Both the position numbers and the translations under genes were made by a program. DNA of 32,000 nucleotides. Origin: Candidatus Electrothrix sp. GW3-4. Its GTDB lineage: Bacteria; Desulfobacterota; Desulfobulbia; Desulfobulbales; Desulfobulbaceae. The stretch is from the NCBI RefSeq assembly GCF_037902255.1, contig NZ_CP147990.1:3810001-3842000 (forward strand), written 5' to 3'. This document shows positions 3,727-22,106 of the stretch, piece by piece. The notes beneath the pieces were generated by a model, which saw only the letters and a program-made list of their open reading frames with translations, was not told the DNA's origin and ran no database searches. The first letter of the stretch is position 1. Each line of letters starts with the position of its first letter.

Positions 3727-6294
3727 ATGAATACCAACCTGAAACTCAAGATCGGGCTACTTTTTACCCTCATCCTCTTTTCTGTCATGACCATTGTGCC
3801 CTCCTTTTACAAGGACTCGCCGGAATGGTGGAAAAAATACCTGGCACCGCAAGGGCTGAAACTCGGCCTGGACCTTCAAGGCGGGGTCCACATGGTTCTC
3901 CGGGTCGATCTGGATAAGGCGGTGACCAATAATCTTGATCTTGCTGCCCAGGAGCTGAAAAAGGGACTGGCCAAGAAAGACATCTCTGTTGTGCAGTTGG
4001 ACGCACCTGATCCTGCCCAGGTTATCTTTACCCTGCCCAATACCGGGGTGCTGGATCAAATCAATGATACCCTGAAAGAGGATTTTCCCGATCTGGACAT
4101 TGATGTGCAGTCCGAGGAGGGCAGCTTTCCCCGCATTACCCTGAGGTTGACTCAGGAGCAGGTGAATTTTGTTCGCGAGAACGCAGTGGATCAGTCCCTG
4201 GAGATTATCCGAAACCGGGTTGACCAGTTCGGTGTGGGCGAGCCGGTCATCGTCCGCCAGGGCGAAGCAGAGATTGTGGTCCAGCTGCCCGGCATTGAGG
4301 ATCATGAGCGGGCAAAAGAATTGATTAACAGCACTGCACAACTGGAGTTCAAACTGGTTGCCCAGCATAACGTGAATCTGCAAGAGCTGGTTAATCAAGC
4401 CAAGGCCGCAGGCCAATGGCAGGAGAGCGGCGGCGATGCAGAACAGCTTAAGAAACTTAATCTGGCCCTCCAGACCAGTCTGCCCAAGGGGACAGAAATT
4501 GCCTTTCAGCTTATCGAGGATAAGCAAAACCAAGAGGCGGGCAAGAAACCCATCCTGCTGGAGAGCCCGGTCCTCATGACCGGGGATATGGTCAAGGATG
4601 CCCGGGTCGGCTATGGCGGCACCTTTAACGAACCCCTGGTCAGCCTCCGTCTTACCGGTGACGGCAGTGATAAGTTTGCCGACATTACTGAGGCCAATGT
4701 CAACAGGCAGCTGGCCATTGTCCTGGACGGGGTAGTGCGCTCTGCTCCGGTTATCCGGGAACGGATCCTCGGCGGTTCAGCCCAGATCTCCGGGAGTTTT
4801 ACCCAGACCGAGGCCAGTGATCTGGCCATTGTCCTTCGGGTCGGTGCCTTGCCAGCCCCGGTTGAAACTATCCAGAACATGACGGTCGGCGCCAGCCTCG
4901 GGCATGACTCCATTATGAAAGGCCTGACCTCGGGCCTCTTTGGCGCCTTGATGGTCCTGGTCTTCATGGTGATCTACTATCGGCTCTCCGGGGTGATTGC
5001 TGATCTGGCCCTGGCCCTGAATATCCTCTTTCTCTTTGCTGGCCTGGCCATGCTCGGCGCCACCCTGACCCTGCCCGGTATTGCCGGTATCATTCTCTCC
5101 ATCGGCATGGCAGTGGATGCCAATGTCCTGATCTTTGAGCGCATGCGAGAGGAATTCGCCCTGGGCAAATCGGCCCGTTCCGGGGTGGATACCGGTTTTG
5201 AAAAGGCCTTCTGGTCCATTGTTGACTCCCAGGTGACTACCCTGATCACGGCCCTGGCCCTGTTTCTCTTTGGTACCGGTCCGATTAAGGGTTTTGCAGT
5301 CACCCTGTCCCTGGGCATTATCTTTAACCTCTTTGCCGTGTTGTTCTGCACCCGTTTGGTCTACGACTGGATCTTCAGTCGTCACAAAAAAATGCATGAA
5401 CTCAAATTCCTCCAGTTTGTCAAAAAGCCCAATTTCAATTTTATGGGGGTCAGAAAAATTGCCTTTACCGCCTCTGCGATCCTGGCCATCTTCGGGACAG
5501 TGGCCTTTGTTGAAATCCTGCTTGGTCAGGCCAACCTTGGGGTTGATTTCTCCGGCGGTTCACTGTTGCAGTATAAGGCAGACCAACCCTTTCAACTGGA
5601 TGCCATCCGCTCTGCCTTGAACAAGGGGAATTTCGGCTCAGTGGATCTCCAGCAGGTAACCGGAGAAAATCGCCTGATCGTCAAGGTGAAAAAGACCGAA
5701 GACACGGTGGGCCATCTGGGCGATGAGATTACAGCGGTGCTGGCCCAGCAGCAGGGTAATACCTTTGCCCTGGAGAGTCAGTCCGAGATCGGCTCCTCAG
5801 TCTCTGATGTCCTGCGGAATAAGGCCATTGAGGCCATTGCCATCTCCCTGCTCGGTGTGCTGCTCTACCTGGCCATTCGCTTTGATTTCAGCTTTGGCCT
5901 GGCAGCGGCAGCAGCCACCTTCCACGACGTGCTGGTGGTGCTGGGGATCTGCTGGTTGCTCAATGTAGAGGTCAACCTGCTCCTGGTCACAGCCCTGCTC
6001 ACCCTGGCTGGTTACTCTCTGAACGACTCGGTGGTTGTCTTTGACCGCATCCGGGAAAACCTGGGGCGCTTTCATGAGAAAGACTTTAATGAGATCATCA
6101 ACATCAGCATCAATGATGTCTTGGGCCGTTCCGTGGTGACCTCGCTGACCACCTCTCTGGTCCTGGTTGCCCTGTTCTTCTTCGGCGGTTCAGCAATCCA
6201 TGATTTTTCTTTTGCCCTGCTGATGGGTGTGCTTGTGGGTACCTATTCTTCAGTGTTTATTGCCAGCCCGCTGCTTTCGTTGAAAAAACGGTAA
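3727..6294 (+). CDS. secDF: Fused protein-export membrane protein SecDF
   Basis: 855-aa ORF with an N-terminal TM and a large periplasmic domain containing the SecD signature GLDLQGGVHMVL, followed by a TM bundle. A second half begins with the SecF-like signature LGVDFSGGSLLQY and a second TM bundle. The single polypeptide equals a SecD-SecF fusion. Confidence 0.9.
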   Translation: MNTNLKLKIGLLFTLILFSVMTIVPSFYKDSPEWWKKYLAPQGLKLGLDLQGGVHMVLRVDLDKAVTNNLDLAAQELKKGLAKKDISVVQLDAPDPAQVIFTLPNTGVLDQINDTLKEDFPDLDIDVQSEEGSFPRITLRLTQEQVNFVRENAVDQSLEIIRNRVDQFGVGEPVIVRQGEAEIVVQLPGIEDHERAKELINSTAQLEFKLVAQHNVNLQELVNQAKAAGQWQESGGDAEQLKKLNLALQTSLPKGTEIAFQLIEDKQNQEAGKKPILLESPVLMTGDMVKDARVGYGGTFNEPLVSLRLTGDGSDKFADITEANVNRQLAIVLDGVVRSAPVIRERILGGSAQISGSFTQTEASDLAIVLRVGALPAPVETIQNMTVGASLGHDSIMKGLTSGLFGALMVLVFMVIYYRLSGVIADLALALNILFLFAGLAMLGATLTLPGIAGIILSIGMAVDANVLIFERMREEFALGKSARSGVDTGFEKAFWSIVDSQVTTLITALALFLFGTGPIKGFAVTLSLGIIFNLFAVLFCTRLVYDWIFSRHKKMHELKFLQFVKKPNFNFMGVRKIAFTASAILAIFGTVAFVEILLGQANLGVDFSGGSLLQYKADQPFQLDAIRSALNKGNFGSVDLQQVTGENRLIVKVKKTEDTVGHLGDEITAVLAQQQGNTFALESQSEIGSSVSDVLRNKAIEAIAISLLGVLLYLAIRFDFSFGLAAAAATFHDVLVVLGICWLLNVEVNLLLVTALLTLAGYSLNDSVVVFDRIRENLGRFHEKDFNEIINISINDVLGRSVVTSLTTSLVLVALFFFGGSAIHDFSFALLMGVLVGTYSSVFIASPLLSLKKR

Positions 6295-6465: not shown

Positions 6466-6497
6466 TTTTCTGGTTTTCTGGTTTTCTGGTTTTCTGG
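6466..6497. repeat. Octanucleotide microsatellite (TTTTCTGG) x4
   Basis: Four perfect head-to-tail copies read directly from the sequence. They abut the REP-like palindrome at 6497. Confidence 0.9.
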
Positions 6498-6541
6498 TTC
6501 CCAAGCTCCAGCTTGGGAACATTGCCTTGAAGCTCTGCTTC
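6497..6541. repeat. REP-like two-hairpin element, copy 1
   Basis: GTTCCCAAGCT-CC-AGCTTGGGAAC (11-bp arms) followed by TGAAGCTCTGCTTC (GAAGC-N3-GCTTC hairpin). The reverse complement recurs at 13702-13751. Confidence 0.75.
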
Positions 6542-6546
6542 CCCGG

Positions 6547-7206
6547 TTATAAAAGAAAATCGTCGTCCATCGGGGCAACATAATGATATTCATCTGGCCC
6601 GCATTTCTTTGCCAGTTTGTTCACAACATTTTTGACAAAGCTTGGCTTATCATAAGGACCGGCCATATAAAAGGGCTTGCCGTTTTTGCCGAATTCAAAG
6701 GAACGAGGACAGGCAGCACTCTCGATATCGCCGAAGATCTTTTTTGCCTCCCGGTAGTCCTTATGCGGAGAGAAACCCAGGTTTGCAGCATATTCCCCCG
6801 CTTTTTCAATAAGTTTTCTGGCGCAGGTGGGATGTATTTTTTTAAGCTTCCCCTGCATGTTGACCTTTTCCAGGAAAGATGGGTAGTTTTCTTCGTTAAA
6901 TACTCTGACAAAGCAGTCTTTAATGCCAAGGCAATAGACATCAATGAGAAAAACGCCTGCCAGGATATCGCCATTGTTTGCTTTTCGGGTGATCATAACT
7001 GAGCCAATACCCACGTCGCTATCCTGGTCAAAGAGCGGTTCAGCTTCCCAGCACTCATAAACCGGGGCATTGAAGGCCTGCTGCATTGCCAGCTTACGGC
7101 TGAAAGCGGACATCAGGCCCTTTTGTTTCTGTGCTGTTTTACGGGCCTTGCTTTTCGCGGCCTGTTTTGCTTTTTTCTTTTGTAGTTTTTTCTGATTTAA
7201 TGCCAT
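6547..7206 (-). CDS. Hypothetical 219-aa protein with a lysine-rich N-terminal tail; last gene of the CHAT-STAND operon
   Basis: The ORF track gives 6547-7383, but its first 59 codons overlap the 3' end of the upstream gene and read as W/P/G-rich off-frame sequence. The ATG at 7206 gives MALNQKKLQKKKAKQAAKSKARKTAQKQKG followed by a globular-looking body. I see no convincing Shine-Dalgarno sequence, so the start is uncertain (alternatives are M32 and M40 of the 219-aa version). No family recognised. Confidence 0.6.
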   Translation of the reverse strand: MALNQKKLQKKKAKQAAKSKARKTAQKQKGLMSAFSRKLAMQQAFNAPVYECWEAEPLFDQDSDVGIGSVMITRKANNGDILAGVFLIDVYCLGIKDCFVRVFNEENYPSFLEKVNMQGKLKKIHPTCARKLIEKAGEYAANLGFSPHKDYREAKKIFGDIESAACPRSFEFGKNGKPFYMAGPYDKPSFVKNVVNKLAKKCGPDEYHYVAPMDDDFLL

Positions 7207-7258
7207 GTTGAGTTCTTTATGTTGAGATTGAAATATGCATCTCAGGATGCCTTCAGGA

Positions 7259-10200
7259 TTAGCCAGAGGTACTGGAATCCTCAGCATCCATAAGCTGTTT
7301 TGCCAGCCGGGCCCATCCCTGTAACCCACCTTCCAGGCCAAGTTGCCCGGCCAGCCTTTCCAAGGCTGCCAATGCCTGGGCAAGGTTCATCTTACTGGCC
7401 CATAGATAGACCTGCACCCAGCAGCCCAGGGCCTCCGGCACCTCTTCATTTTGGATGTGGATATGGCCCATATTGAACATGGTAGCGCATAACCCGGCAA
7501 CGTCACCGATTTCCCGCTGTATTGCCAGCGACTGTTTCAGATAGTCCAGCGCGGTCTCGTAATCGCCTCGGGCGTCATAGATCTGTGAGATATTATTGAG
7601 GGTGGTTCCTTCACCGGATTTGTCACCGATTTCCCGCCTAATTGCCAGCGACTGTTTCAGATAGTCCAGCGCGGTCTCGTAATCGCCTCGGGCGTCATAG
7701 ATCTGTGAGATATTATTGAGGGTGGTTCCTTCACCGGATTTGTCACCGATTTCCCGCTGTATTGCCAGCGACTGTTTCAGATAGTCCAGCGCGGTCTCGT
7801 AATCGCCTCGGGCGTGATACAGTGCTGAGATATTATTGAGGGTGGTTCCTTCACCGGATTTGTCACCGATTTCCCGCTGTATTGCCAGCGACTGTTTCAG
7901 ATAGTCCAGCGCGGTCTCGTAATCGCCTCGGGCTTTGAAAATCTGTGAGATATTATTGAGGGTGGTTCCTTCACCGGATTTGTCACCGATTTCCCGCCTA
8001 ATTGCCAGCGACTGTTTCAGATAGTCCAGCGCGGTCTCGTAATCGCCTCGGGCGTCATAGATCTGTGAGATATTATTGAGGGTGGTTCCTTCACCGGATT
8101 TGTCACCGATTTCCCGCCTAATTGCCAGCGACTGTTTCAGATAGTCCAGCGCGGTCTCGTAATCGCCTCGGGCTTTGAAAATCTGTGAGATATTATTGAG
8201 GGTGGTTCCTTCACCGGATTTGTCACCGATTTCCCGCCTAATTGCCAGCGACTGTTTCAGATAGTCCAGCGCCTCGGAGTAACTGCCGATATGCAGCAGC
8301 TGTTTACCGGTCTGGCCAAGGGCCTCGGCCCGTGTCTGCTCATCCTCAGATCGACAAATCGCAGGCAACCAATGTTCCAACAGGGCCTGGTATTGCCCAT
8401 CCCTACTCAACCAACCAACGATGTAATCCAGGGCCAAGCGGTCTGCCTCCTCCTGCCGCTCTGCCATTTGCAAGGCTTGATGACAGGTAATGATATGCTG
8501 TACACTTCGGTACTGCCCCTGCTCAAAAAGATAGATCAGGTAATCAGCCGCAAGGCTACGCAAAGGGGTGGCGGGCGGGCCAGCCTGTTGCGCCAGCAAC
8601 TCGCAGACCAGGGCCGGGCATTGATATTCCTCTGTCTGAAGCCGCGGATTCCAGCGCTGTTCCAACAGAGACAGGTCAAGTAATCGCTGCAAACATCCTT
8701 CCGGGTTCGGCAAATCCAGGCCCAATTTGACCAAACCCTCCAGGGGCACCGGCACCGGATAGACCGGCAGCCGTTCCAACAGGCCCTTCTCCTCTGGGCT
8801 CAGCCGAGTGATGATCTCCTCCAGGCACATATTGACCTGAATCTCTTCCCTGGCCCGCTCCAGGGCAAGAAACAGCTCTTCTTCCTCCCGAGCATTCATC
8901 TCCTTGATCGCAGCAGCAAAGAACTCCAATCCTCGCCCGTTGCCGTGCAGGACCTCATAGGCCCGACGCAAACGTTTTCGGTCCCCGTAAAAAGAAAAGG
9001 GGAGACGGAGTTGGCGGGCCATGGCAAGAAAATCACCGTAGTTTGTTTTCCCCAAGGACTGATGATCTGCCGCAGGCCAGTCCGGCAAACAATGGCGGGA
9101 GGTGAGCAGAAGGATCAAGCCCTTGCCAACAAATTTACGAGCAGCAGCCAACCAGCTCCGCACGCTTTCATTGCTGATCTCCAGACTGTCCCTCTCCTGA
9201 AGAGACTCCAGGTTATCAAGGACCAGGACCAGTGTATTGCCCGTGGCCCGAAGCAGCTCTTCCAGCAACATTTCCAGACGGTCCTGCTCGTTATCCAGAT
9301 TGGCTTCCAGGTCTTTATAGAAGTCCCGTGTCTCCTCTGGTCCCAGCAGTCGTCTGAGCAATCCTCTTACCCGAAAGGTAAATTTCTTCAGACGTTGCTC
9401 GGTCTCTTCCTCATCCAACCCAGCCTGAAAAACCAGCGAGGTAAAGCCCCGGCGCTCCAGATCCAGGGCCAGCTTACCAGCCAACGCGGTTTTGCCCTGG
9501 CCCCCCGGCCCGGTGAGCAGTAACTGGCCAGCGTGTTCCCGGAACAGCCTCCTCCTAATCCGGCGCAGCTCCGAACGCCGCCCGATAAAGAGCGGTGGCA
9601 GGGTGAGATCCCCCAGTCCCCGACTCAGCGGCACCTGCGGCGGCTTGGGGGCAAAGTTCCAGTCAATCAGGGGCCGGGCCGGGTCCTGAGTAAAGAGCAT
9701 GGGCAGGCACCACTGCCCTCGACTTAACTCCACAGCCCCACTCAGCTCGCTGTTATCCCGCAGGACGCCGCTTCCTTCCGATGATCCTGCTGCTTGCTGG
9801 ATAGCCTGCCGGGCCTCTTGCAGGGCCAGATCCACCCGCTCGCCCTGGGCCACGGCATCACAAAAGGCATGGGCCAGCAGGATACCGGCCAGGTCCTGCA
9901 ACGATTCCCGCATCCCAATGACCTGGGGAATCCCCTGCTGCGCCAAGCGACGAGCCAGGCCAGCAGTCAGCGACGTTGAGGCGGCCTTGCCGGACTCACA
10001 AGCCGAGAGGACCAGACATTCCACCGGGGCACCGATCAGGGCCGTTGCCAGCTCTTCCCCCTGCACCGCATGGCCCTGATCGATCTCATCCTCAAAAAGA
10101 AAGATACCAAAGGGCTCTTCGCCAGTATGAGGCTGGTGATAGAATTTGCCGTGCCCGGAAAGAAAGACAACATGCGGCCGAAAATTCCTCAGTAAGTCCT

Positions 10201-10756
10201 TAAAGGTGGAAAAACGGCCGTCATCAGGCATCTCCAGCTCTACCCGCCCCTCGGCAATCCGGGGCAGCAGGGCCTCCAGCACCCGTGCCTGCTCCTCTTC
10301 CACATCCAGGCGGCTGCGATGGGCATCCATATCATCGGGCAGGGCAGTGAAGAGCAGGACCCGCAAGGGGCCGGTCTCTAACGGTGCAGGTTCGGCCTGA
10401 TGCTCTTCTGGCACCGCAAGGGAACGGGACAGGGTAAAACGCGATTTCCTGCCCAGGAATCCCTGCTCCTGATGATAGAGGAGCTCCCAGGGCAGATATT
10501 GAATCTCGGCATCCCCGCTGCTGATCAAGATCGGCAGGACCTGATTGCCGAGCTTCCCCAGGGCCTCTTCCAGGCCCCCGTCCTGGTCCAGCACCTGCCA
10601 GAGATGCGCCCCAACTTGCTTCAGCGCCTCATCAGGAACGACATGATTTACGGCATAGGCCTGCTCCATGGCAGAGGCTTCACGCCGCAGGGCAGGATGC
10701 TGTTTCAGGAGATCAGCAGGCGGACAGAGGAGGAAGGACCTTTCGGCAACACGCAT
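7259..10756 (-). CDS. CHAT (caspase-like protease) - STAND/NACHT-type P-loop NTPase - TPR repeat fusion protein (NLR-like)
   Basis: 1165-aa ORF.
- CHAT: His-Cys dyad context VVFLSGHGKF (His202, nt 10151-10153) and CLVLSACESGKA (Cys253, nt 9998-10000).
- NTPase: Walker A LLTGPGGQGKTALAGKLA (Lys422, nt 9491-9493), Walker B LVLVLDNLES, and a GxP-like helical-arm motif LHGNGRGLEFF.
- C-terminus: seven 40-aa TPR units (consensus GDYETALDYLKQSLAIRREIGDKSGEGTTLNNISQIYDAR).
- A GGAGG RBS lies 6 nt upstream, inside the end of the preceding gene. Confidence 0.9.
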   Translation of the reverse strand: MRVAERSFLLCPPADLLKQHPALRREASAMEQAYAVNHVVPDEALKQVGAHLWQVLDQDGGLEEALGKLGNQVLPILISSGDAEIQYLPWELLYHQEQGFLGRKSRFTLSRSLAVPEEHQAEPAPLETGPLRVLLFTALPDDMDAHRSRLDVEEEQARVLEALLPRIAEGRVELEMPDDGRFSTFKDLLRNFRPHVVFLSGHGKFYHQPHTGEEPFGIFLFEDEIDQGHAVQGEELATALIGAPVECLVLSACESGKAASTSLTAGLARRLAQQGIPQVIGMRESLQDLAGILLAHAFCDAVAQGERVDLALQEARQAIQQAAGSSEGSGVLRDNSELSGAVELSRGQWCLPMLFTQDPARPLIDWNFAPKPPQVPLSRGLGDLTLPPLFIGRRSELRRIRRRLFREHAGQLLLTGPGGQGKTALAGKLALDLERRGFTSLVFQAGLDEEETEQRLKKFTFRVRGLLRRLLGPEETRDFYKDLEANLDNEQDRLEMLLEELLRATGNTLVLVLDNLESLQERDSLEISNESVRSWLAAARKFVGKGLILLLTSRHCLPDWPAADHQSLGKTNYGDFLAMARQLRLPFSFYGDRKRLRRAYEVLHGNGRGLEFFAAAIKEMNAREEEELFLALERAREEIQVNMCLEEIITRLSPEEKGLLERLPVYPVPVPLEGLVKLGLDLPNPEGCLQRLLDLSLLEQRWNPRLQTEEYQCPALVCELLAQQAGPPATPLRSLAADYLIYLFEQGQYRSVQHIITCHQALQMAERQEEADRLALDYIVGWLSRDGQYQALLEHWLPAICRSEDEQTRAEALGQTGKQLLHIGSYSEALDYLKQSLAIRREIGDKSGEGTTLNNISQIFKARGDYETALDYLKQSLAIRREIGDKSGEGTTLNNISQIYDARGDYETALDYLKQSLAIRREIGDKSGEGTTLNNISQIFKARGDYETALDYLKQSLAIQREIGDKSGEGTTLNNISALYHARGDYETALDYLKQSLAIQREIGDKSGEGTTLNNISQIYDARGDYETALDYLKQSLAIRREIGDKSGEGTTLNNISQIYDARGDYETALDYLKQSLAIQREIGDVAGLCATMFNMGHIHIQNEEVPEALGCWVQVYLWASKMNLAQALAALERLAGQLGLEGGLQGWARLAKQLMDAEDSSTSG
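7502..8270. repeat. Near-perfect 120-bp tandem repeat array (about 6.4 units) encoding the TPR sensor region
   Basis: The period of 120 is visible as alternate 60-nt lines repeating (7501/7621/7741 and so on). Units are identical except at two short cassettes: CTGTAT vs CCTAAT, and GCGTCATAGATCTGT vs GCGTGATACAGTGCT vs GCTTTGAAAATCTGT. Confidence 0.95.
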
Positions 10757-10758
10757 GA

Positions 10759-11013
10759 TTATTCCTCCGCTTCGACAGGGACAGGAGAAGGAAAGCTCCA
10801 GCCCTCTGTAGAGCTCTTCTCCTCCCCACCGCTACGAGTGATGGTATTATCGCGGATAATACGATATCTGTTCAGAGTAACTGTCCCGCTGGTACCGCAG
10901 TAGGGACATTGCACTCGAAGCCTGGGTTGCCCTTCCAGCTCAAGGGTCAATTCATAGATACGGTTGCAGTCCGAATTATAGCATCGTAAAGGCAGACGGC
11001 GAGTTTCTGACAT
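10759..11013 (-). CDS. Small zinc-ribbon protein (84 aa), translationally coupled to the CHAT-STAND gene
   Basis: Cys pairs CYNSDC and CPYC, about 25 residues apart, flank a beta-rich segment. The C-terminal tail is acidic and low-complexity (SGGEEKSSTEGWSFPSPVPVEAEE). The stop at 10759 lies 2 nt from the downstream ATG at 10756. A GAGGT RBS precedes the ATG. Confidence 0.7.
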   Translation of the reverse strand: MSETRRLPLRCYNSDCNRIYELTLELEGQPRLRVQCPYCGTSGTVTLNRYRIIRDNTITRSGGEEKSSTEGWSFPSPVPVEAEE

Positions 11014-11024
11014 GGCTCAATACC

Positions 11025-11492
11025 TCAATAATAGATGGAAAGAACGGCAGAGCAGATACCGATGAAGAGGAGAAGAGCAGACGGCAGAATCAACCGTCGC
11101 TTATGGCGGGCTGTTTTTTGAAAATAATCCCGGATCCCCAACGGGGCCTCATGGGCAAAGCTATCCTTCTCCATGATTCGCTCATCCACCTGCCAGGAAC
11201 GGGGCAGCAGAGCAAGTAGGGTCAGCACCAGGGCTGCCAGCCAGCAGAAAAAGGCGGCCGTGAGAAAAATGTTCATGGGAGCCATAGCCTTGGCCCCGGC
11301 AACCAGCTTGAGCACGGTGGCAAAGAGGCCGGGAATGGCCAGCTCCAGGGTGATGAGCCGCTCCGCCATCCGGTCCAATCGCTCGGACTGACCTGCCAGA
11401 TCCTCGGCGTACTTGCTGACCAGGACCTCTTCCACTGGGGTAACAGGATCCATATCCAGGATTTCTGCCTGTCTCAACTCTTCCGATGGCAT
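11025..11492 (-). CDS. Three-TM membrane protein (155 aa); first gene of the operon and a candidate membrane effector
   Basis: Strong RBS AAGGAGG upstream of the ATG at 11492. An acidic cytoplasmic N-terminus is followed by a hydrophobic hairpin (LITLELAIPGLFATVLKLVAG, MNIFLTAAFFCWLAALVLTLLALLP), a roughly 35-aa soluble linker and a terminal TM (LILPSALLLFIGICSAVLSIYY). An 11-nt gap separates it from the next gene. Confidence 0.7.
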   Translation of the reverse strand: MPSEELRQAEILDMDPVTPVEEVLVSKYAEDLAGQSERLDRMAERLITLELAIPGLFATVLKLVAGAKAMAPMNIFLTAAFFCWLAALVLTLLALLPRSWQVDERIMEKDSFAHEAPLGIRDYFQKTARHKRRLILPSALLLFIGICSAVLSIYY

Positions 11493-11707
11493 CGGCTTCC
11501 TCCTTACACTGGTTTTTCTATAGAATAGAAGCCTATATTACACTTCTTGTAAATTGCCAGCAACCCATAGAATGAGCTCTCTTTTTCCTGCTTACCAAAC
11601 AGAATACTTCCTCCAAAAACACCTATGCATTCTCCACAAGGACGTTTACAATACAGAATTACTAAAAACCAACATCATCCGGCAGATCAAAAACACACCA
11701 GAGCCCC

Positions 11708-12621
11708 ATGAAGATCCCCTACGGAGAAAGCAGCTTTAAAAAAATCAGAACTGGCGATTACCTGTACATCGACAAGACCGCCTACATCGCCCCCCTGGAG
11801 GAAGAAGGCTGCTTCAACATCCTGCTCCGCCCCCGCCGCTTCGGCAAAAGCCTCTTTCTCTCCACCCTCTGGCATTACTACGATGTCCACTATCAAGATC
11901 AATTTGGGTCCCTCTTTTCCGGGCTTGCCATCGGCGAAGCCCCTACCCCACTGCGCAACAGCTACCAGGTGCTCTTTATGGAGTTCAGTGGCATCCGCGA
12001 CAACAATACTGCAACAATCCTTGAGGATTTCCTCTTTGAAATCCGCAAACGACTCCGCATCTTCTAAGTAACAACACATTTATATTGTTGTTATTTGGAA
12101 ATTTGGTCCCGGGCGCAGGCCGGGGGGAGCGCTTTTTAGAGGATTACCAATACCCGCAAGAGGACATCAACCGCCTGGAAGCGGCAAGTGAACTCTCTCC
12201 TGCCTCCTTAATGAAGCTCTTTTTCGAAATAATCAGGGATCAAAAAATTTATCTGATGATCGACGAATACGATCATTTCGCCAATAGCCTGCTCGGCACC
12301 AGCCTGGAACGTTTTCAGGAGATCATCGGCAGGGGCGGCTTTGTCCGCAGCTTTTACGAGACCATAAAAACCGCGACAATGGAGGGCATTGTTGACCGCT
12401 TCTTCATCACCGGCGTCACCTCCATCACCCTGGACAGCCTGACCAGTGGCTTCAACATCGGCAATAATATTACCCACCACCAGGGATTCAATCAGGCCAT
12501 TGGCTTTACCCATGAGGAAGTCGCGACCACAATCCAGCCCCTGGTTACTGCCTGCGACCTTGAGCAGCCAGTTCCTGCCTGTAGGGCCGCTGAAAGACCT
12601 GTCCCAGATGTTCCGAGGTAA
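11708..12621 (+). pseudogene. Disrupted and truncated AAA-ATPase-like (PF09820-type, normally AAA-ATPase + PD-(D/E)XK_9) gene
   Basis: The N-terminus MKIPYGESSFKKIRTGDYLYIDKTAYI...LRPRRFGKSLFLSTL is the hallmark of this family. The frame ends at 12067 and homology resumes in another frame near 12130 (KIYLMIDEYDHFANSLL...FFITGVTSITLDSLTSGFNIG). Family-like sequence stops near 12546, and no C-terminal nuclease domain is present. Confidence 0.7.
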
Positions 12622-12866
12622 AGGCCAGTTTATAGGACTCGCCGGGCAGGGCCATAGAATCAAACTCGCCCAGAGGCAGGAGGGTTGAGAGGTCATTACT
12701 GCGATAGAGGGTGCGGACCTGCTCTATCAGGCGACGAAAGTATTGTTCACTTTACTCCAGGTCTTCTTCTGCATCTACAGCTTGTTTCGCCTTACTGAAC
12801 TCAAGGTCTTCATAATTAATATCATGCTCCCCATCGCCTGCTTGCGTGGCTATGCCCACTAAATCA

Positions 12867-13418
12867 TCAAAGGTAAGGCGGCTGTGACCTTGAACTACTG
12901 TTTTCCATACCTTTATCAGCATTAATTGTCAGAATATCAGTACCGTATTTCTCATGAATTACAGGCCATATTTCCTCAAGTCGATCGACAATAAAATCAC
13001 TGCTCACCTACCCCAATGTAAAAAACAAAAAAAGATCATCGTGTTCTGGCAGGAAGAAGCCGAAAGGAGTCAGTTTCTCTTTGACTCCCAAATCATGATC
13101 CTCGGCTTTAGTCAGAACGCGATTTCGTCCTCCTCGAGAGAAATTTCCTATATTCATTCGTGCTTTCGCATCAATCGATATTCGAACTTCTTTCGGATTA
13201 CTGTCCGCTTCTTCGTTGGCTTTATGAACCTGCTCGAATATCGCGTCAGTTTTTTGGCATGCTTCATATACCCCAAAAAGTAGTTGACACTTTTTGCAAG
13301 AACTGTGCCAAGCTATTAGCACAGGATAAGCCAAGCGCCTCCCCAACGGTTTGACTTTATGTGTATTGTAGCAGTTCTCTTGTTTGAGGTGAGATTCAAC
13401 CCATCCAGAAAGTGTCAA
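12867..13418 (-). pseudogene. ISAzo13-family (DDE_Tnp_ISAZ013-like) transposase remnant
   Basis: The motifs TDAIFEQVHKANEEAD, RISIDAKARMNIGNFSRGGRNRV, EDHD, KLTPFGFFLPEHDDLFLFFT, then (after an in-frame TAG at 13008-13010) SSDFIVDRLEEIWP and LTINADKGMENSSSRSQ match my memory of this transposase family. The N- and C-terminal portions are missing. No inverted terminal repeats identified. Confidence 0.6.
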
Positions 13419-13701
13419 CCGGCATATGAAACAAGCCAGTTTTTTCTATTTTTCTTGACTACTTTCTGCTTCCTGCGTCCCATCCCCTGCCGTTTTGCTC
13501 TCCTGCATGGCCCTTCCCTCCGCTCAGGGTGATCATTTTTTTTATAAATTTTATCAACGCATCAACCACGCATACTCTGTTTTCATAAAAAAGTAAAGAG
13601 AGAACTCTTGCAAAGTCAGCTTGTTGAAAAGAGAAGAAAAGGATATTCCAGACAGGTGGGGCCGTTTAATACGGATGCCGAAACGCTGTCTGGTCATCGA
13701 A

Positions 13702-13751
13702 GAAGCAGAGCTTCAGAAAAAAAAACAGTTCCCAAACCGGAGCTTGGGAAC
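13702..13751. repeat. REP-like two-hairpin element, copy 2 (inverted relative to copy 1)
   Basis: GAAGCAGAGCTTCA, then an A-rich spacer, then GTTCCCAAACCGGAGCTTGGGAAC. This is the reverse complement of the 6497-6541 element with a few substitutions. Confidence 0.7.
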
Positions 13752-13823
13752 CAGATCAATCAGATAAGCTATAGAGGGGTAGGTCCCTGTACCTGCCCAT
13801 TTATATACCGCACGGAACGTTCA

Positions 13824-13845
13824 GGGCGAACACAGGGGTTCGCCC
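13824..13845. repeat. GC-rich intergenic palindrome (GGGCGAAC-N6-GTTCGCCC)
   Basis: Perfect 8-bp inverted repeat in the 500-bp non-coding stretch between the transposase remnant and the Na/Pi symporter gene. I recall similar palindromes as dispersed repeats in other genomes, but I cannot verify that here. Confidence 0.5.
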
Positions 13846-13911
13846 CTACGACACAATCAAGAGGACAACTCTTATGATATTTTTTAAAAAGAGCAAAACA
13901 AAAGGCGTTTC

Positions 13912-17654: not shown

Positions 17655-18728
17655 TCAGACTATCTTCACATCCAGGATATCCACCAGGCTGCCATCATAC
17701 TCATTGAGCACCATCGTCTTCAGGGCGGCATAGTCATTGACCGTAATCGCCAGGCTGCTCACTGCCGAACCGGCGAATCTGGACAGCGTGTAGTCCCCAT
17801 TCCCGGTCACGGGCACCAGCAGGCCCTTGGCACCCTCGTCCTGCATAGCAATCAACCTGAAGGCAAGAAGATCATCCTGTAGATTATGCTCGACCTGGAC
17901 CCGGAGGTGCTCGTCCGCCGTGACGGTGCCACCCTTGATAGACACATAGGGTGTAGCCGCGCTGCCGGTGAGTATCCCGCTATTCATGGGCGGCCCGCTG
18001 CTGCTGATGGTGATACCCAGCGGCGTACGGAGCCTTTGACCGTAGCTGCCCGTGCGGATCGAGCCGTGTTCGGTATAGCGGGTGGTGATGGACACCGTAT
18101 ATTCGTTATTCCAGGGATTGGATTGGGCCGGGATATGGGGCACGATCAGCACTTCCCGCTCCGTGATATCAGCAAATTGGCTCTGCACCTCGCTACCGCT
18201 CTCGGTTCCGGCGAGCACGCAGCAGTTATCCGAATCTTCCTCATCAAAGCCAAGGTAATTACCGGTGAGCCGCAGGACGCCCTCTGGGTTGAGCACATTG
18301 TTCAGCCGGGTCTTGGTGTCTGTAGCGGCCTGGATTGCCGGGATATTTTCTGTCCAGGACTCACGGACCAGGTTTGCATTCGCCTGCAGCTCCCGGACAA
18401 GAGGACGCGAGGCCGAGACATTGAGCTTCAGGAGTTCCTCCATAGGCGGCAGCGACGCATCCGGGGTGGCCAATCGGGCATGAAAGGAGGGTCGGAAAGT
18501 GAGGGCATCTTCCAGGGTGACCTGCATGCCTTCGAGCAGCAGCTCCATGATTTCTCCCATCGCTGACTGGAGATGATTCTTGATCTATTCCACCGAAGAA
18601 CCGGGGTTCTTCAGGGCAACCCGGGCCGCCACCTCGTCATAGCCCGCTGTCCCCTGTGGGATAAAGCGGAGCCGGTAAGATACAGGTTTGGTCAGGGGAT
18701 TGAGCTCTACGCGATAGTGAATAGCCAT
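17655..18728 (-). pseudogene. HU-like DNA-binding N-domain + DUF4469-like protein, interrupted by an in-frame TAG (codon 48)
   Basis: The ATG at 18728 has a strong RBS (AAAGGAGG) and opens MAIHYRVELNPLTKPVSYRLRFIPQGTAGYDEVAARVALKNPGSSVE. A TAG follows at 18585-18587, and the same frame then continues as IKNHLQSAMGEIMELLLEGMQVTLEDALTFRPSF into the 301-aa ORF 17655-18560. This layout resembles the Bacteroidetes-type HU-related/DUF4469 family (family assignment from memory, moderate certainty). Confidence 0.6.
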
Positions 18729-18905: not shown

Positions 18906-19038
18906 ATGCTCTAGCATGGAGTGATTCTACATGCTAGCATTGAGACCCTCTACATGCTAGCTTTGGGAGTCTCTCCATGCTTGCATTGAGACCCTCTACA
19001 TGCTGGCATTGAGATTTTCTACATGCTGGCATGGACTA
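18906..19038. repeat. Array of about six 21-25-bp direct repeats with a palindromic core (consensus CTACATGCTAGCATTGAGACCCT)
   Basis: Units occupy 18906-18926, 18927-18949, 18950-18974, 18975-18995, 18996-19018 and 19019-19038. The core is ATGCTAGCAT, a 10-bp perfect palindrome in unit 18927-18949 and degenerate in the other units (ATGCTGGCAT in 18996-19018 and 19019-19038). The array lies in the divergent intergenic region between the HU-like gene and the low-GC islet. Confidence 0.85.
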
Positions 19039-19216: not shown

Positions 19217-19873
19217 TTGGAATACCTGAAGCTACTTCTGGAATATATAAAAGTTCTAGTTTGGCCAATAGTTACCGTCGTTCTAGCTTTTACATTTAAA
19301 GATTCGTTAATGGAGTTATTGTCAAGGCTTCAGAAAGCTGACTTACCTGGTGATGTTTCTTTAGACTTTACGCAAAACTTGGAGGAAGCAAAGGAACTAT
19401 CTAGGAAGGTGGAAGAAACTCCTATGAGAGAGGAGCATAAAAACGTACCAACTATCCCTTTAACCGATGCAAACTCTCGTTTAATATCTGTTGGATTACA
19501 GCCTTCTCCTTCGGGATTAGATATGAACTACTACCGTGAACTTGCCAATCAAGATCCAAATTTAGCTTTGGCAGGTTTGAGAATGGAAGTTGATGTGTTG
19601 GCTAGGAACCTCGCTAAAGGATTTAATATAAATATCAAAAAAAATGATGGGGGCATGAGGATTCTTGACGTTTTATATCACAATGGCGCTATATATAAAG
19701 AACAAATGATGCTTGCTAAAAAGGTGCTATCCTTATGTAATGCCGCAATTCACGGAAAAAACGTATCAAAAGGGCAAGCATTAGATGTAATAGATCTAAC
19801 AGATGTTCTAAAAGGGGATTATATACGCTGGCTAAGCTGGGGGTTTCCTGATGGCTGGCAACCACCTGAATAA
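19217..19873 (+). CDS. Hypothetical membrane-anchored protein with a DUF4145-like C-terminal domain (low-GC gene)
   Basis: 218-aa ORF from a TTG start (RBS-like AGAGGA upstream). It has an N-terminal TM (VLVWPIVTVVLAFTF). The C-terminal helices LAGLRMEVDVLARNLAK ... LSLCNAAIHG resemble the R/E...N-A-x-H signature I associate with DUF4145. G+C is about one third in sampled lines. Confidence 0.55.
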   Translation: MEYLKLLLEYIKVLVWPIVTVVLAFTFKDSLMELLSRLQKADLPGDVSLDFTQNLEEAKELSRKVEETPMREEHKNVPTIPLTDANSRLISVGLQPSPSGLDMNYYRELANQDPNLALAGLRMEVDVLARNLAKGFNINIKKNDGGMRILDVLYHNGAIYKEQMMLAKKVLSLCNAAIHGKNVSKGQALDVIDLTDVLKGDYIRWLSWGFPDGWQPPE

Positions 19874-21099: not shown

Positions 21100-21392
21100 A
21101 GTGCGACATTATCCCTATCTCAACCCTATCACCCAATAGAAAAGAAGGATTCTATGGAACCACAAAAAGTCATCATGGCTGGTAACAGCATACAAAAGTG
21201 GTGCAGACCTCACCAATCTCACTCCCCGTTCAACACCCACCTCCTTTTTGGGAGCTGACAACCGAATAAACGGTTCTGGTGGCTGCAGCAGGTCTTTTGC
21301 TGCCTATACAGCCAGTGCCTCCACTCGGAGTATCAAGGTCTATCCCCGGTTTTCGCATTACATAAACAACTCATAGGTTGGAGAAAATACGA

Positions 21393-22106
21393 ATGAAACC
21401 AAACAAGATAATGATGTTTGTCGCCCTGCTGGGCTCTATGGGCACTCTCTTTGCCCTTGCCGGACTGGTGGAAAATGGCACGCCAGAGGCTGTAGCGGAT
21501 GAGAAGCCGACGGAACAGCAGAACGCGCCTGCTCAAGATGCTCCGGCTGCTGCTTTTCCTGATTATGAGATCGGGTTATTCAGCCATAAGGCCCATATGA
21601 ACGACGTGGGACTGCAATGCAACGACTGCCATAACAAGATCTTTCAAATGTCAGCCACCAGCGCTAAGGCCAATGATGACTTCAATAAAATCTCCTTCGG
21701 GGAGGGAAAATACTGCGGTGCCTGTCATAACGGATCCGTGGCCTTTGGTGTTCAGGACGAAGCCCACTGTAGCCGCTGTCATGGTAATGACGTCAATCCC
21801 CCGGATACTATTCTCCTCGAAAAACCGCTCAAGGCAGTCCTTTTTGATCACGCCTTACATAATAAGGAACTCGGCCTTGCCTGCAATGAATGTCATATGA
21901 AGCTCTTTGCTATGAAAACGGGAATTACGGTCGAGCAAGCTGATTTCACTATGGAATCCATGTATAACGGCAAATACTGCGGCGCCTGCCATAACGGTAG
22001 CTTGGCTTTTGGTCTTAAGGGCAACTGCTCCAAATGTCATGCTGATACGCCGGAATACAGGCGTGCAACCTCTGGGACGGGAGAGAAGGGGGAGGCTAAG
22101 CAGTAG
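21393..22106 (+). CDS. Secreted hexaheme c-type cytochrome made of two tandem c7-type triheme modules
   Basis: Six CxxCH motifs (CNDCH, CGACH, CSRCH; CNECH, CGACH, CSKCH). Each module is preceded by FxHxxH (FSHKAHM, FDHALHN). Signal peptide MKPNKIMMFVALLGSMGTLFALAG. I prefer the ATG at 21393 (GGAG upstream) over the TTG at 21378 in the ORF track. Confidence 0.85.
   Translation: MKPNKIMMFVALLGSMGTLFALAGLVENGTPEAVADEKPTEQQNAPAQDAPAAAFPDYEIGLFSHKAHMNDVGLQCNDCHNKIFQMSATSAKANDDFNKISFGEGKYCGACHNGSVAFGVQDEAHCSRCHGNDVNPPDTILLEKPLKAVLFDHALHNKELGLACNECHMKLFAMKTGITVEQADFTMESMYNGKYCGACHNGSLAFGLKGNCSKCHADTPEYRRATSGTGEKGEAKQ

Follow-up and report, generated by a model that had tools for sequence, protein, structure and literature searches.

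A near-identical 120-bp TPR repeat array in a predicted NLR-like CHAT-STAND gene of Candidatus Electrothrix sp. GW3-4

The DNA analyzed here is a stretch of 32,000 nucleotides (nt) of the cable bacterium Candidatus Electrothrix sp. GW3-4 (contig NZ_CP147990.1, positions 3,810,001 to 3,842,000), referred to below as the window and numbered from its first letter. On the minus strand it carries a gene for a protein of 1165 amino acids (aa) whose C-terminal tetratricopeptide repeats (TPRs) are encoded by an array of almost identical 120-bp tandem units. This gene is the third of an operon, following genes for a membrane protein and a zinc-ribbon protein. The coordinates of these features, and of the two short blocks (cassettes A and B) in which the units differ, are given in Table 1. 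The array had been noticed in a first-pass annotation made from the letters alone, and the analysis reported here followed it up by comparison with relatives, structure prediction, and the genomic surroundings.

Table 1. Position of the CHAT-STAND-TPR gene, its predicted domains, the repeat array, and the operon partners in the window.
Feature	Position	Strand	Basis or content
CHAT / STAND NTPase / TPR (NLR-like) gene, 1165 aa	7259..10756	minus	Open reading frame (ORF) list and translation, Pfam
CHAT caspase-like protease domain, aa 48-323	9788..10615	minus	Pfam PF12770, E 1e-36, 127 bits (cut-off 24)
STAND-type P-loop NTPase, aa 390-554	9095..9589	minus	Pfam AAA_16, 44.8 bits (cut-off 32.6)
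Whole TPR solenoid	7268..8347	minus	N-cap 8228-8347, six near-identical units, C-terminal cap 7268-7507
TPR array of high internal conservation, 120-bp units	7502..8272	minus	Tandem Repeats Finder: period 120, 6.4 copies, 95% matches, no indels
Cassette A overall	7574..8185	minus	Helix A, canonical TPR positions 9-12
Cassette B overall	7517..8122	minus	Near the C-terminal end of helix B
Unit 1	A 8174-8185; B 8117-8122	minus	QIFK; IR
Unit 2	A 8054-8065; B 7997-8002	minus	QIYD; IR
Unit 3	A 7934-7945; B 7877-7882	minus	QIFK; IQ
Unit 4	A 7814-7825; B 7757-7762	minus	ALYH; IQ
Unit 5	A 7694-7705; B 7637-7642	minus	QIYD; IR
Unit 6	A 7574-7585; B 7517-7522	minus	QIYD; IQ
Operon gene 1, 155-aa membrane protein	11025..11492	minus	Three long helices, weakly PycTM-like, candidate membrane effector (alignment, AlphaFold2 model)
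Operon gene 2, 84-aa zinc-ribbon protein	10759..11013	minus	CxxxxC...CPxC; stop codon 2 nt before the CHAT start

Besides the CHAT protease and the P-loop nucleoside triphosphatase (NTPase), Pfam recognized the C-terminal array of the 1165-aa protein as TPR_12 (255 bits, aa ~804-1120). The N-terminal 600 residues were aligned with those of seven relatives from several phyla, and in this eight-sequence alignment both residues of the putative catalytic dyad of the CHAT domain, His202 (FLSGHG) and Cys253 (LSACES), were invariant, as were the Walker A (GPGGQGKT, aa 416-423) and Walker B (DNLE, aa 514-517) motifs of the NTPase. The NACHT profile reached 19.7 bits on the NTPase domain against a cut-off of 26.7, and NPHP3_N was also below its Pfam cut-off. 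Because CHAT, AAA_16, and TPR_12 domains are combined with invariant catalytic and Walker motifs, the product is, as far as its predicted domains go, an NLR-like tripartite STAND protein, with an N-terminal effector, a central NTPase, and C-terminal repeats, and its protease effector is probably active. The first-pass annotation had spoken of the TPR sensor of a STAND protein. The STAND architecture is borne out by the domains and invariant motifs; the sensor role is carried over by analogy from established knowledge of STAND and NLR proteins, whose repeats are the sensor part.

The array is composed of the last 45 nt of an N-cap unit (aa 804-843), already identical to the repeat, followed by six full 40-codon units (8227..7508, aa 844-1083) and the first 6 nt of the C-cap. 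Tandem Repeats Finder returned the 6.4 near-identical copies that had been described, and the statement that the units are identical except at two spots also held, with 108 of the 120 nucleotide columns the same in all six units and the other 12 confined to two blocks. Any two units differ at 0-12 of their 120 nt, always inside these blocks (90-100% nucleotide identity), and the six units together (240 aa) exceed the >85% repeat identity over at least 100 aa that marks highly conserved arrays of the fungal NLR type. Cassette A covers unit nt 43-54 (codons 15-18) and reads CAG ATC TAT GAC (QIYD), CAG ATT TTC AAA (QIFK), or GCA CTG TAT CAC (ALYH), while cassette B covers nt 108-110 (codons 36-37) and reads ATT AGG (I-R) or ATA CAG (I-Q). 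The codon pair of cassette B had been read correctly before, and so had the sequences of cassette A; the latter had been taken for a block of five codons (QIYDA, QIFKA, or ALYHA), and its length was reduced to four since the fifth codon (Ala) is invariant. Each block contains a linked synonymous change of an Ile codon (ATC/ATT in A and ATT/ATA in B).

Such clustering was not reproduced by chance, as none of 1,000,000 random placements of 12 variable columns fitted two blocks with a combined span of at most 15 nt. The 34 scaffold codons, which offer ~26 synonymous sites per unit, held no synonymous difference among the six units. All four combinations FK-R, FK-Q, YD-R, and YD-Q are present in the array; FK and YD are therefore each found with both R and Q at unit position 37, which indicates exchange between the two cassettes. 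A second copy of the 120-bp unit was not found elsewhere in the window. After the array comes a conserved C-terminal cap (7268-7507) with the pattern GDxAGLCATxFNMGHIHxQN...W...Y...NLAQxLxAL..LA..LGLxGGLxxW. The cap is kept across phyla even where unit number differs, and it may be a functional module, serving for example in capping or autoinhibition, instead of a decayed repeat.

Relatives were searched for with the non-repeat N-terminal 803 aa, which gave 328 matches at E<=1e-10, of which the best 120 were listed; a scan of GTDB gave 79 genomic loci, and 78 related genes, 52 of them complete, were examined. Their hosts are Chloroflexota, Gammaproteobacteria (Chromatiaceae, Thiotrichaceae/Beggiatoa-like, Competibacteraceae, and Thiosymbion), Chlorobiaceae, SAR324, and Desulfobacteraceae, and the proteins range from ~850 to 1400 aa. 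Adjacent 40-aa units at least 85% identical were present in 43 of 121 proteins (the query and the best 120 of the 328 relatives). At the nucleotide level, 27 of the 78 related genes had at least two adjacent units that were at least 90% identical, and 13 had at least three. Two relatives with 58% and 51% N-terminal identity (L001 and L002) have arrays that are likewise frozen at synonymous sites, each on its own scaffold codons; for this reason the homogenization appears to be lineage-specific and ongoing. Polymorphism within the arrays of 58 proteins concerned position 18 in every case, position 37 in 97%, position 15 in 91%, and position 8 in 84%.

More direct evidence came from pairs of alleles whose N-terminal ~760 aa are 98-100% identical. 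In each pair the length difference is an exact multiple of 40 aa, and recombinant units are present in some of the alleles. The Ardenticatenaceae pair L007 and P0020 have N-termini that are 100% identical, with 11 units in one and 3 in the other. In Thiohalocapsa PB-PSB1, the complete genome (L028) and a metagenomic allele (P0055) share 99.9% of the N-terminus and have 9 and 5 units, respectively, differing in word order and content. L047 has 4 units and P0034 has 1, and L022 has 2 units while P0067 has a single one that joins helix A of unit 1 to position 37 of unit 2; read from its sequence, this single unit is exactly the product of one unequal crossover. The interpretation of the array as a result of recent unequal recombination or gene conversion is thus supported by the four cassette combinations, the frozen arrays of separate lineages, the 43 of 121 proteins with near-identical units, and the whole-unit differences between alleles. 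The repeat-number differences among orthologues that had been proposed as a check were seen in all four of these pairs, and ordinary divergent TPRs without concerted evolution, named beforehand as the outcome that would speak against recombination, are not what the relatives show.

A Ca. Thiosymbion ectosymbiont genome has two paralogous copies of the whole system on two scaffolds (L013 and L025), with N-terminal regions 97.9% identical and C-terminal parts differing by 188 aa. The nearest homologue of the CHAT protein is in Ca. Electrothrix sp. AUS4 (85% aa identity, partial), on a 1.9-kb contig that stops ~50 aa short of the TPRs. An exact match to the window protein was not found in the contig index, no Electrothrix locus was returned by the GTDB scan, and metagenome scans gave no match to a 39-nt invariant stretch of the unit and no relative of the N-terminal protein.

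In the AlphaFold2 model of the array, the predicted local distance difference test score (pLDDT) was >90 throughout, with helix A at unit positions 3-19 and helix B at 23-40. The best sequence match of the array was to the 40-residue TPRs of LGN/Pins (E 1e-44) and its best fold match to LGN/Pins TPR-peptide complexes (E 5e-16, target-normalized template modeling score up to 0.73); the high-identity 42-residue TPR of Podospora anserina (PDB 4Y6C/4Y6W) was matched as well. In the alignments to Pfam TPR_1 and TPR_2, canonical TPR position n falls at unit position n + 6. The variable residues were assigned from this register, together with the predicted secondary structure and published statistics on TPR positions. 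In an LGN-type superhelix, helix A is turned toward the inside and helix B toward the outside (PMC6525239). The most variable TPR positions are 2, 5, 9, 12, 13, 33, and 34, on the concave face; peptide contacts in HOP co-crystals involve positions 2, 5, 6, 9, 12, and 13; and position 6 is often an Asn contacting the ligand backbone (Magliery and Regan, PMC1261162).

In this register, unit positions 15 (Q/A) and 18 (D/K/H) correspond to canonical positions 9 and 12 and carry radical changes facing the groove, and positions 16 (I/L) and 17 (Y/F), at canonical core positions 10 and 11, carry conservative ones. The invariant Asn12 of the unit falls on canonical position 6, that of the Asn in contact with the peptide backbone, and unit position 8, variable family-wide, falls on canonical position 2, which is concave. 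Position 37 (R/Q) corresponds to canonical position 31, one turn before the end of the extended helix B; on a helical wheel it shares a side with the buried positions 26, 30, 33, and 40 and may point inward. The register therefore supports a placement of the residues that differ between units mainly at groove-facing positions of helix A (canonical 9 and 12, and family-wide also 2). The earlier suggestion that the variable residues line the ligand surface is supported by the register for unit positions 15 and 18, and family-wide for 8, but not for the core positions 16 and 17.

How far the units are shared among relatives was seen in a census of the six-residue helix-A word in 640 units from 137 proteins. 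ISQIYD made up 99 of these units, from 65 proteins; ISQIFK made up 66, from 45 proteins; MATTAH 19, from 8; and ISALYH 14, from 12. By this count the three words of the window are family-wide unit types, and since, in addition, word order is not kept between relatives, the shuffling of a limited set of modules fits better than unconstrained hypervariability. Mutual information within the unit was highest between positions 15 and 18 and between positions 17 and 18; residues 17 and 18 tend to be paired as Tyr-Asp or Phe-Lys (odds ratio ~108, without phylogenetic correction). Between units, position 37 was coupled to position 4 of the next unit (mutual information 0.358 vs a shuffle mean of 0.276, standard deviation 0.023, that is, ~3.5 standard deviations above), and to positions 8, 15, and 18 of the next unit at just 1-2 standard deviations above the shuffle mean.

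The two small genes upstream are part of the same conserved arrangement. Among 82 sequences searched (the window, L001-L003, and the 78 GTDB loci), a homologue of the membrane protein was found in 62 and a zinc-ribbon homologue, encoded on the same strand, in 65. Counted more strictly, over the 66 loci whose flank is long enough, both partners precede the CHAT gene on its own strand in 45 loci, and one or both do so in 55; L001 and L002 have homologues of both. In the aligned zinc-ribbon proteins four Cys are invariant, and a (L/F)P-x-hydrophobic-hydrophobic-P-T motif is conserved at the C-terminus. The membrane protein was modeled by AlphaFold2 as all-helical; that of the window had no Pfam match, and PycTM (PF18967) was matched weakly by 7 of 33 members of the family (best E 0.009), with a precomputed match in 3 of 120 database relatives. 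Nothing significant was found for it by fold search, the best hit being NINJ1 at E 0.5.

Downstream of the CHAT gene there is a minus-strand ORF (6547-7383) with a Lys-rich N-terminus and a likely true start at MALNQKKLQKKKAKQ...; as mechanically called it overlaps the end of the CHAT gene. Its product had no match in Pfam, PADLOC, or NCBIfam, and the ORF is not kept downstream of the relatives L001 and L002. Between SecDF, which ends at 6294, and this gene lies a perfect microsatellite, (TTTTCTGG) x 4.2, at 6466-6499.

The remainder of the window is housekeeping, with SecDF, a Na/Pi cotransporter, RuvAB, PolA, and cytochrome c7. The window's RuvB is 97% identical to that of Ca. Electrothrix communis, E. 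aestuarii, and sp. Rat3, and the block of Na/Pi transporter, RuvA, and RuvB is conserved in these three, with a different cargo in the slot beyond the transporter. In E. communis the slot holds a radical-SAM/PqqD cluster for a ribosomally synthesized and post-translationally modified peptide together with a C25 peptidase, and in E. aestuarii and Rat3 a giant SpvB/TcdB/RHS (Tc) toxin gene. No orthologue from E. communis, E. aestuarii, or Rat3 was among the best 120 of the 328 matches. Since the sister slots hold other cargo and no such orthologue was listed, the operon would be accessory cargo in a variable slot, a status that fits a role in conflict or defense without proving it, and from these gene contents the slot beside the transporter-RuvA-RuvB block looks like a hotspot for accessory and conflict genes. 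The GC profile did not mark the operon as foreign, and a scan for promoters and terminators gave results at or below the shuffle expectation. With PADLOC 2.0 no specific model was hit, the matches being generic TPR, a weak partial SAVED_CHAT (1e-6 over 60 aa), and PDC-S39 and PDC-S73 (E>1e-4); NCBIfam gave no specific family match, and plasmid and phage collections gave just distant CHAT matches of ~30% identity.

Several other observations concern the surroundings of the operon. Between the operon and the Na/Pi cotransporter (11493-13911) the window has only short ORFs without Pfam matches and a truncated AAA-ATPase_like (PF09820) fragment at 12085-12621, whose counterpart in Rat3 is a full-length 563-aa AAA-ATPase_like + PDDEXK_9 gene (L087 17998-19689). 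Rat3 also has an Eco29kI restriction-modification system downstream of RuvB. Farther away, at 18911-19032, is an intergenic tandem repeat with a 23-bp unit, a 46-bp super-unit, ~4.7 copies, ~80% identity, and the near-palindrome ACATGCTAGCAT, with a DUF4469 gene on the minus strand (17655-18560) on one side and, on the other, an ORF that had no Pfam match (19217-19873). A multihaem cytochrome c7/c3-type protein of 242 aa (21378-22106) is possibly of interest for cable-bacterium electron transport and is unrelated to the array.

Taken together, we consider it likely that the array forms the repeat arm, or sensor, of an NLR-like STAND protein with a CHAT effector, in which the scaffold is homogenized and the binding groove remodeled by recombination among the units. 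The six 40-residue units would form an LGN-type superhelix with helix A lining the inner groove. Unequal crossing-over and gene conversion would homogenize the scaffold, synonymous sites included, and at the same time alter the number of units and re-sort the discrete unit types (YD, FK, and ALYH, with R or Q at position 37), so that the groove would be remodeled much faster than the rest of the gene. From the biology of STAND and NLR proteins (e.g., PMC13581612) we infer that a ligand in the groove may release autoinhibition, leading to NTP-dependent oligomerization and activation of CHAT by proximity. More speculatively, and by analogy with protease-gasdermin systems, the protease could then cleave the PycTM-like membrane protein, the zinc-ribbon protein, or both, resulting in membrane damage or cell suicide.

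A number of points weigh against this interpretation. The assignment to the concave TPR surface covers the helix-A positions and does not extend to position 37, and a small cross-phylum vocabulary with Y17-D18 and F17-K18 coupling is more readily explained by maintained unit types than by open-ended diversifying selection. Some of the unit-number differences between public assemblies could be mimicked by short-read collapse, which cannot explain the pair L028 and P0055 because their units differ in content. The comparisons of unit number come from other lineages, as the metagenome scans gave no close relative and the AUS4 contig stops before the array; the array also offers too few sites for a formal dN/dS estimate, which recombination would confound. 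The genes outside the slot are housekeeping, and neither PADLOC nor NCBIfam offered a specific system or family.

Four other explanations were weighed. The array could be a neutral, recent expansion, in which slippage or unequal crossing-over copied a few old unit types whose words stayed under ordinary purifying selection. The recurrence of the words across phyla (in 65, 45, 12, and 8 proteins) with their tight Y-D and F-K coupling is what old conserved types would give, and the arrays of the relatives range continuously from divergent to identical. We nevertheless regard this as unlikely. Near-identical arrays recur independently, each lineage with its own scaffold codons, which requires ongoing homogenization; near-identical alleles differ in the order and content of their units and not in number alone; and 5-9 nt differences within 12 nt, beside 108 invariant columns, cannot result from uniform mutation after duplication.

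The groove could also hold a constant partner of the cell itself, such as the zinc-ribbon protein's C-terminal motif or the tail at the N-terminus of the membrane protein, for autoinhibition or as a scaffold, with unit number tuning the geometry or the size of the oligomer. The variation in the number (1-11) and order of units between alleles with identical N-termini is left unexplained by a constant ligand, and we find this explanation rather improbable, even with the three-gene operon conserved, the (L/F)P-x-hydrophobic-hydrophobic-P-T tail shared by the zinc-ribbon proteins, LGN-type TPRs known to bind extended peptides, and a limited word set that fits a conserved ligand.

Equally doubtful, as an extension of the preferred reading of a recombining sensor arm, is the idea that the TPR units read an extended protein ligand in a modular, combinatorial way inside a three-gene death or defense module, where the order and number of units would spell the specificity. 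Words found across phyla from Chloroflexota to Proteobacteria (QIYD, QIFK, ALYH, MATTAH/Y, and others), together with position 37, would be re-ordered by recombination, in a logic like that of transcription activator-like effectors (TALEs) or pentatricopeptide repeats applied to peptides. The setting of such a reader would be a membrane effector, a zinc-ribbon protein, and the CHAT-STAND-TPR protein in filamentous or multicellular bacteria.

That the array was mis-assembled, as a collapsed or expanded repeat whose unit order is not real, is very improbable here. The reading frame is unbroken, the array is properly capped at its N- and C-terminal ends, the variants follow no periodic order, and the window's RuvB (100% identity) is on a 4.64-Mb contig; in addition, arrays of 9-11 near-identical units are present in L002 (10 units, 6.56-Mb contig), L028 (9 units, complete genome), and L007 (11 units, 391-kb contig). 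Even so, exact 120-bp repeats are hard to assemble, collapse would mimic some allele pairs (L007 vs P0020), and many public contigs of the relatives stop inside the TPR region. The warning of an assembly hazard in the first-pass annotation was fair in that at least 13 contigs break off there, ending inside the gene at ~aa 820-930, where the TPR units begin (L004, L008, L009, L014, L016, L024, L029, L034, L036, L038, L039, L041, and L081), which is consistent with near-identical repeats breaking short-read assemblies. Because such arrays break or collapse these assemblies, unit counts in public metagenome-assembled genomes are not to be trusted. Finally, targeted hypermutation of both cassettes, by a diversity-generating retroelement (DGR) or otherwise, is effectively refuted: DGRs have been reported to diversify putative conflict-system sensors of multicellular bacteria (PMC10907252), but the window has no template repeat (second copy of the unit) and no reverse-transcriptase domain among the ORFs scanned, the substitutions are not adenine-specific (C/G, T/C, and G/C are included), and the same discrete words across phyla are not expected from random mutagenesis.

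The locus and its relatives offer sequence-level evidence of a fungal-type repeat regime in bacteria. The three-gene module is widespread, occurring in cable bacteria, large sulfur bacteria, Chloroflexota, Chlorobiaceae, and SAR324; it could be tested as a caspase-driven cell-death or defense system in culturable hosts and would give a route to study repeat-shuffling receptors.

Two types of protease operon already described are similar in gene organization. In bacterial gasdermin operons, as in the one described here, a caspase-like protease fused to repeat or NTPase modules stands beside a small membrane-active protein; there, CHAT or caspase-like proteases are fused to TPR, LRR, WD40, or NACHT, and the protease was proposed to couple recognition to effector cleavage (Johnson et al., bioRxiv 10.1101/2021.06.07.447441). 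Unlike them, the membrane protein is here helical and weakly PycTM-like, with a zinc-ribbon gene in between, and Pfam gave no match to a gasdermin domain in the operon partners. The EACC1-caspase "System 4" also has a 5' small membrane protein followed by an N-terminal caspase-superfamily peptidase with variable C-terminal modules, including STAND NTPases and repeats, and is enriched in multicellular prokaryotes (Kaur et al. 2020, PMC7159879). EACC1, however, has a single conserved transmembrane helix, in contrast to the three long helices and extra zinc-ribbon gene found here, and no EACC1 family appeared among the Pfam matches of the 33 membrane-protein members at E<=1, the presence of an EACC1 model in the Pfam set being unchecked. 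The operon resembles both the EACC1-caspase and the gasdermin-protease operons in logic, without a recognizable defining feature of either.

A STAND NTPase with a TPR-like sensor and an N-terminal effector is also found in the antiviral STAND proteins (Avs, bNACHT), in which binding of one foreign protein by the sensor leads to oligomerization and activates the N-terminal effector (PMC13581612). Avs sensors differ in being large and irregular, recognizing their target by shape complementarity instead of by arrays of identical units, and CHAT is unmentioned in the main text of that survey (PMC13581612); no PADLOC model of Avs or bNACHT matched the CHAT protein. As to the repeats themselves, the TPRs of LGN (GPSM2)/Pins/AGS3 share the 40-residue period, and the inner groove of LGN binds extended peptides (NuMA, Inscuteable, Frmpd4). 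The Asn of its "LGN" motif aligns with the variable unit position 15 and the preceding conserved Asn with the invariant Asn12. LGN is, on the other hand, a eukaryotic scaffold of eight divergent repeats, with no NTPase or protease and no concerted evolution. TALE repeats are near-identical tandem repeats at the DNA level, with few variable residues, a small vocabulary, and a number and order changed by recombination. They serve as an analogy only, as their fold is different and their ligand is DNA, and there is no evidence here for a code of one unit per ligand feature.

In repeat behavior the parallel is with NLRs. In fungi, high internal repeat conservation, repeat-number polymorphism, and variable sites on the concave TPR face are established (Dyrka 2014, PMC4986451). 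The Podospora anserina nwd/hnwd and NB-ARC-TPR proteins (e.g., Pa_2_10340; Paoletti 2007; PMC4986451) have the same architecture of effector, nucleotide-binding oligomerization domain, and repeats, with repeats >85% identical, repeat-number differences between alleles, and repeat shuffling and concerted evolution proposed as their source. The likeness to this pattern, suggested in the first-pass annotation, is supported, with six units >85% identical here and whole-unit allele differences in the relatives. What sets the present case apart is a bacterial gene with a CHAT effector, a 40-residue repeat (42 in the fungal proteins), and a small recurrent cross-phylum vocabulary in place of open hypervariability. 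In bacterial NLRs, which are enriched in filamentous and multicellular bacteria, TPR and WD arrays with 80-90% internal identity have been described, with CHAT among the effector domains, and the same regime of fast diversification was suggested (Dyrka et al. 2020, bioRxiv 10.1101/2020.01.06.895854); that paper raises the possibility only, whereas allele-level evidence is given here. Neither a description of the family of CHAT, AAA_16 NTPase, and 40-aa TPRs with two conserved upstream genes nor allele-level evidence of this sort was found in the literature compared. The array is therefore of a kind already known, established for fungal NLRs and suggested for bacterial ones, and what the comparison of sequences adds is allele-level evidence from bacteria, a shared vocabulary of words, and a conserved, apparently unnamed three-gene module.

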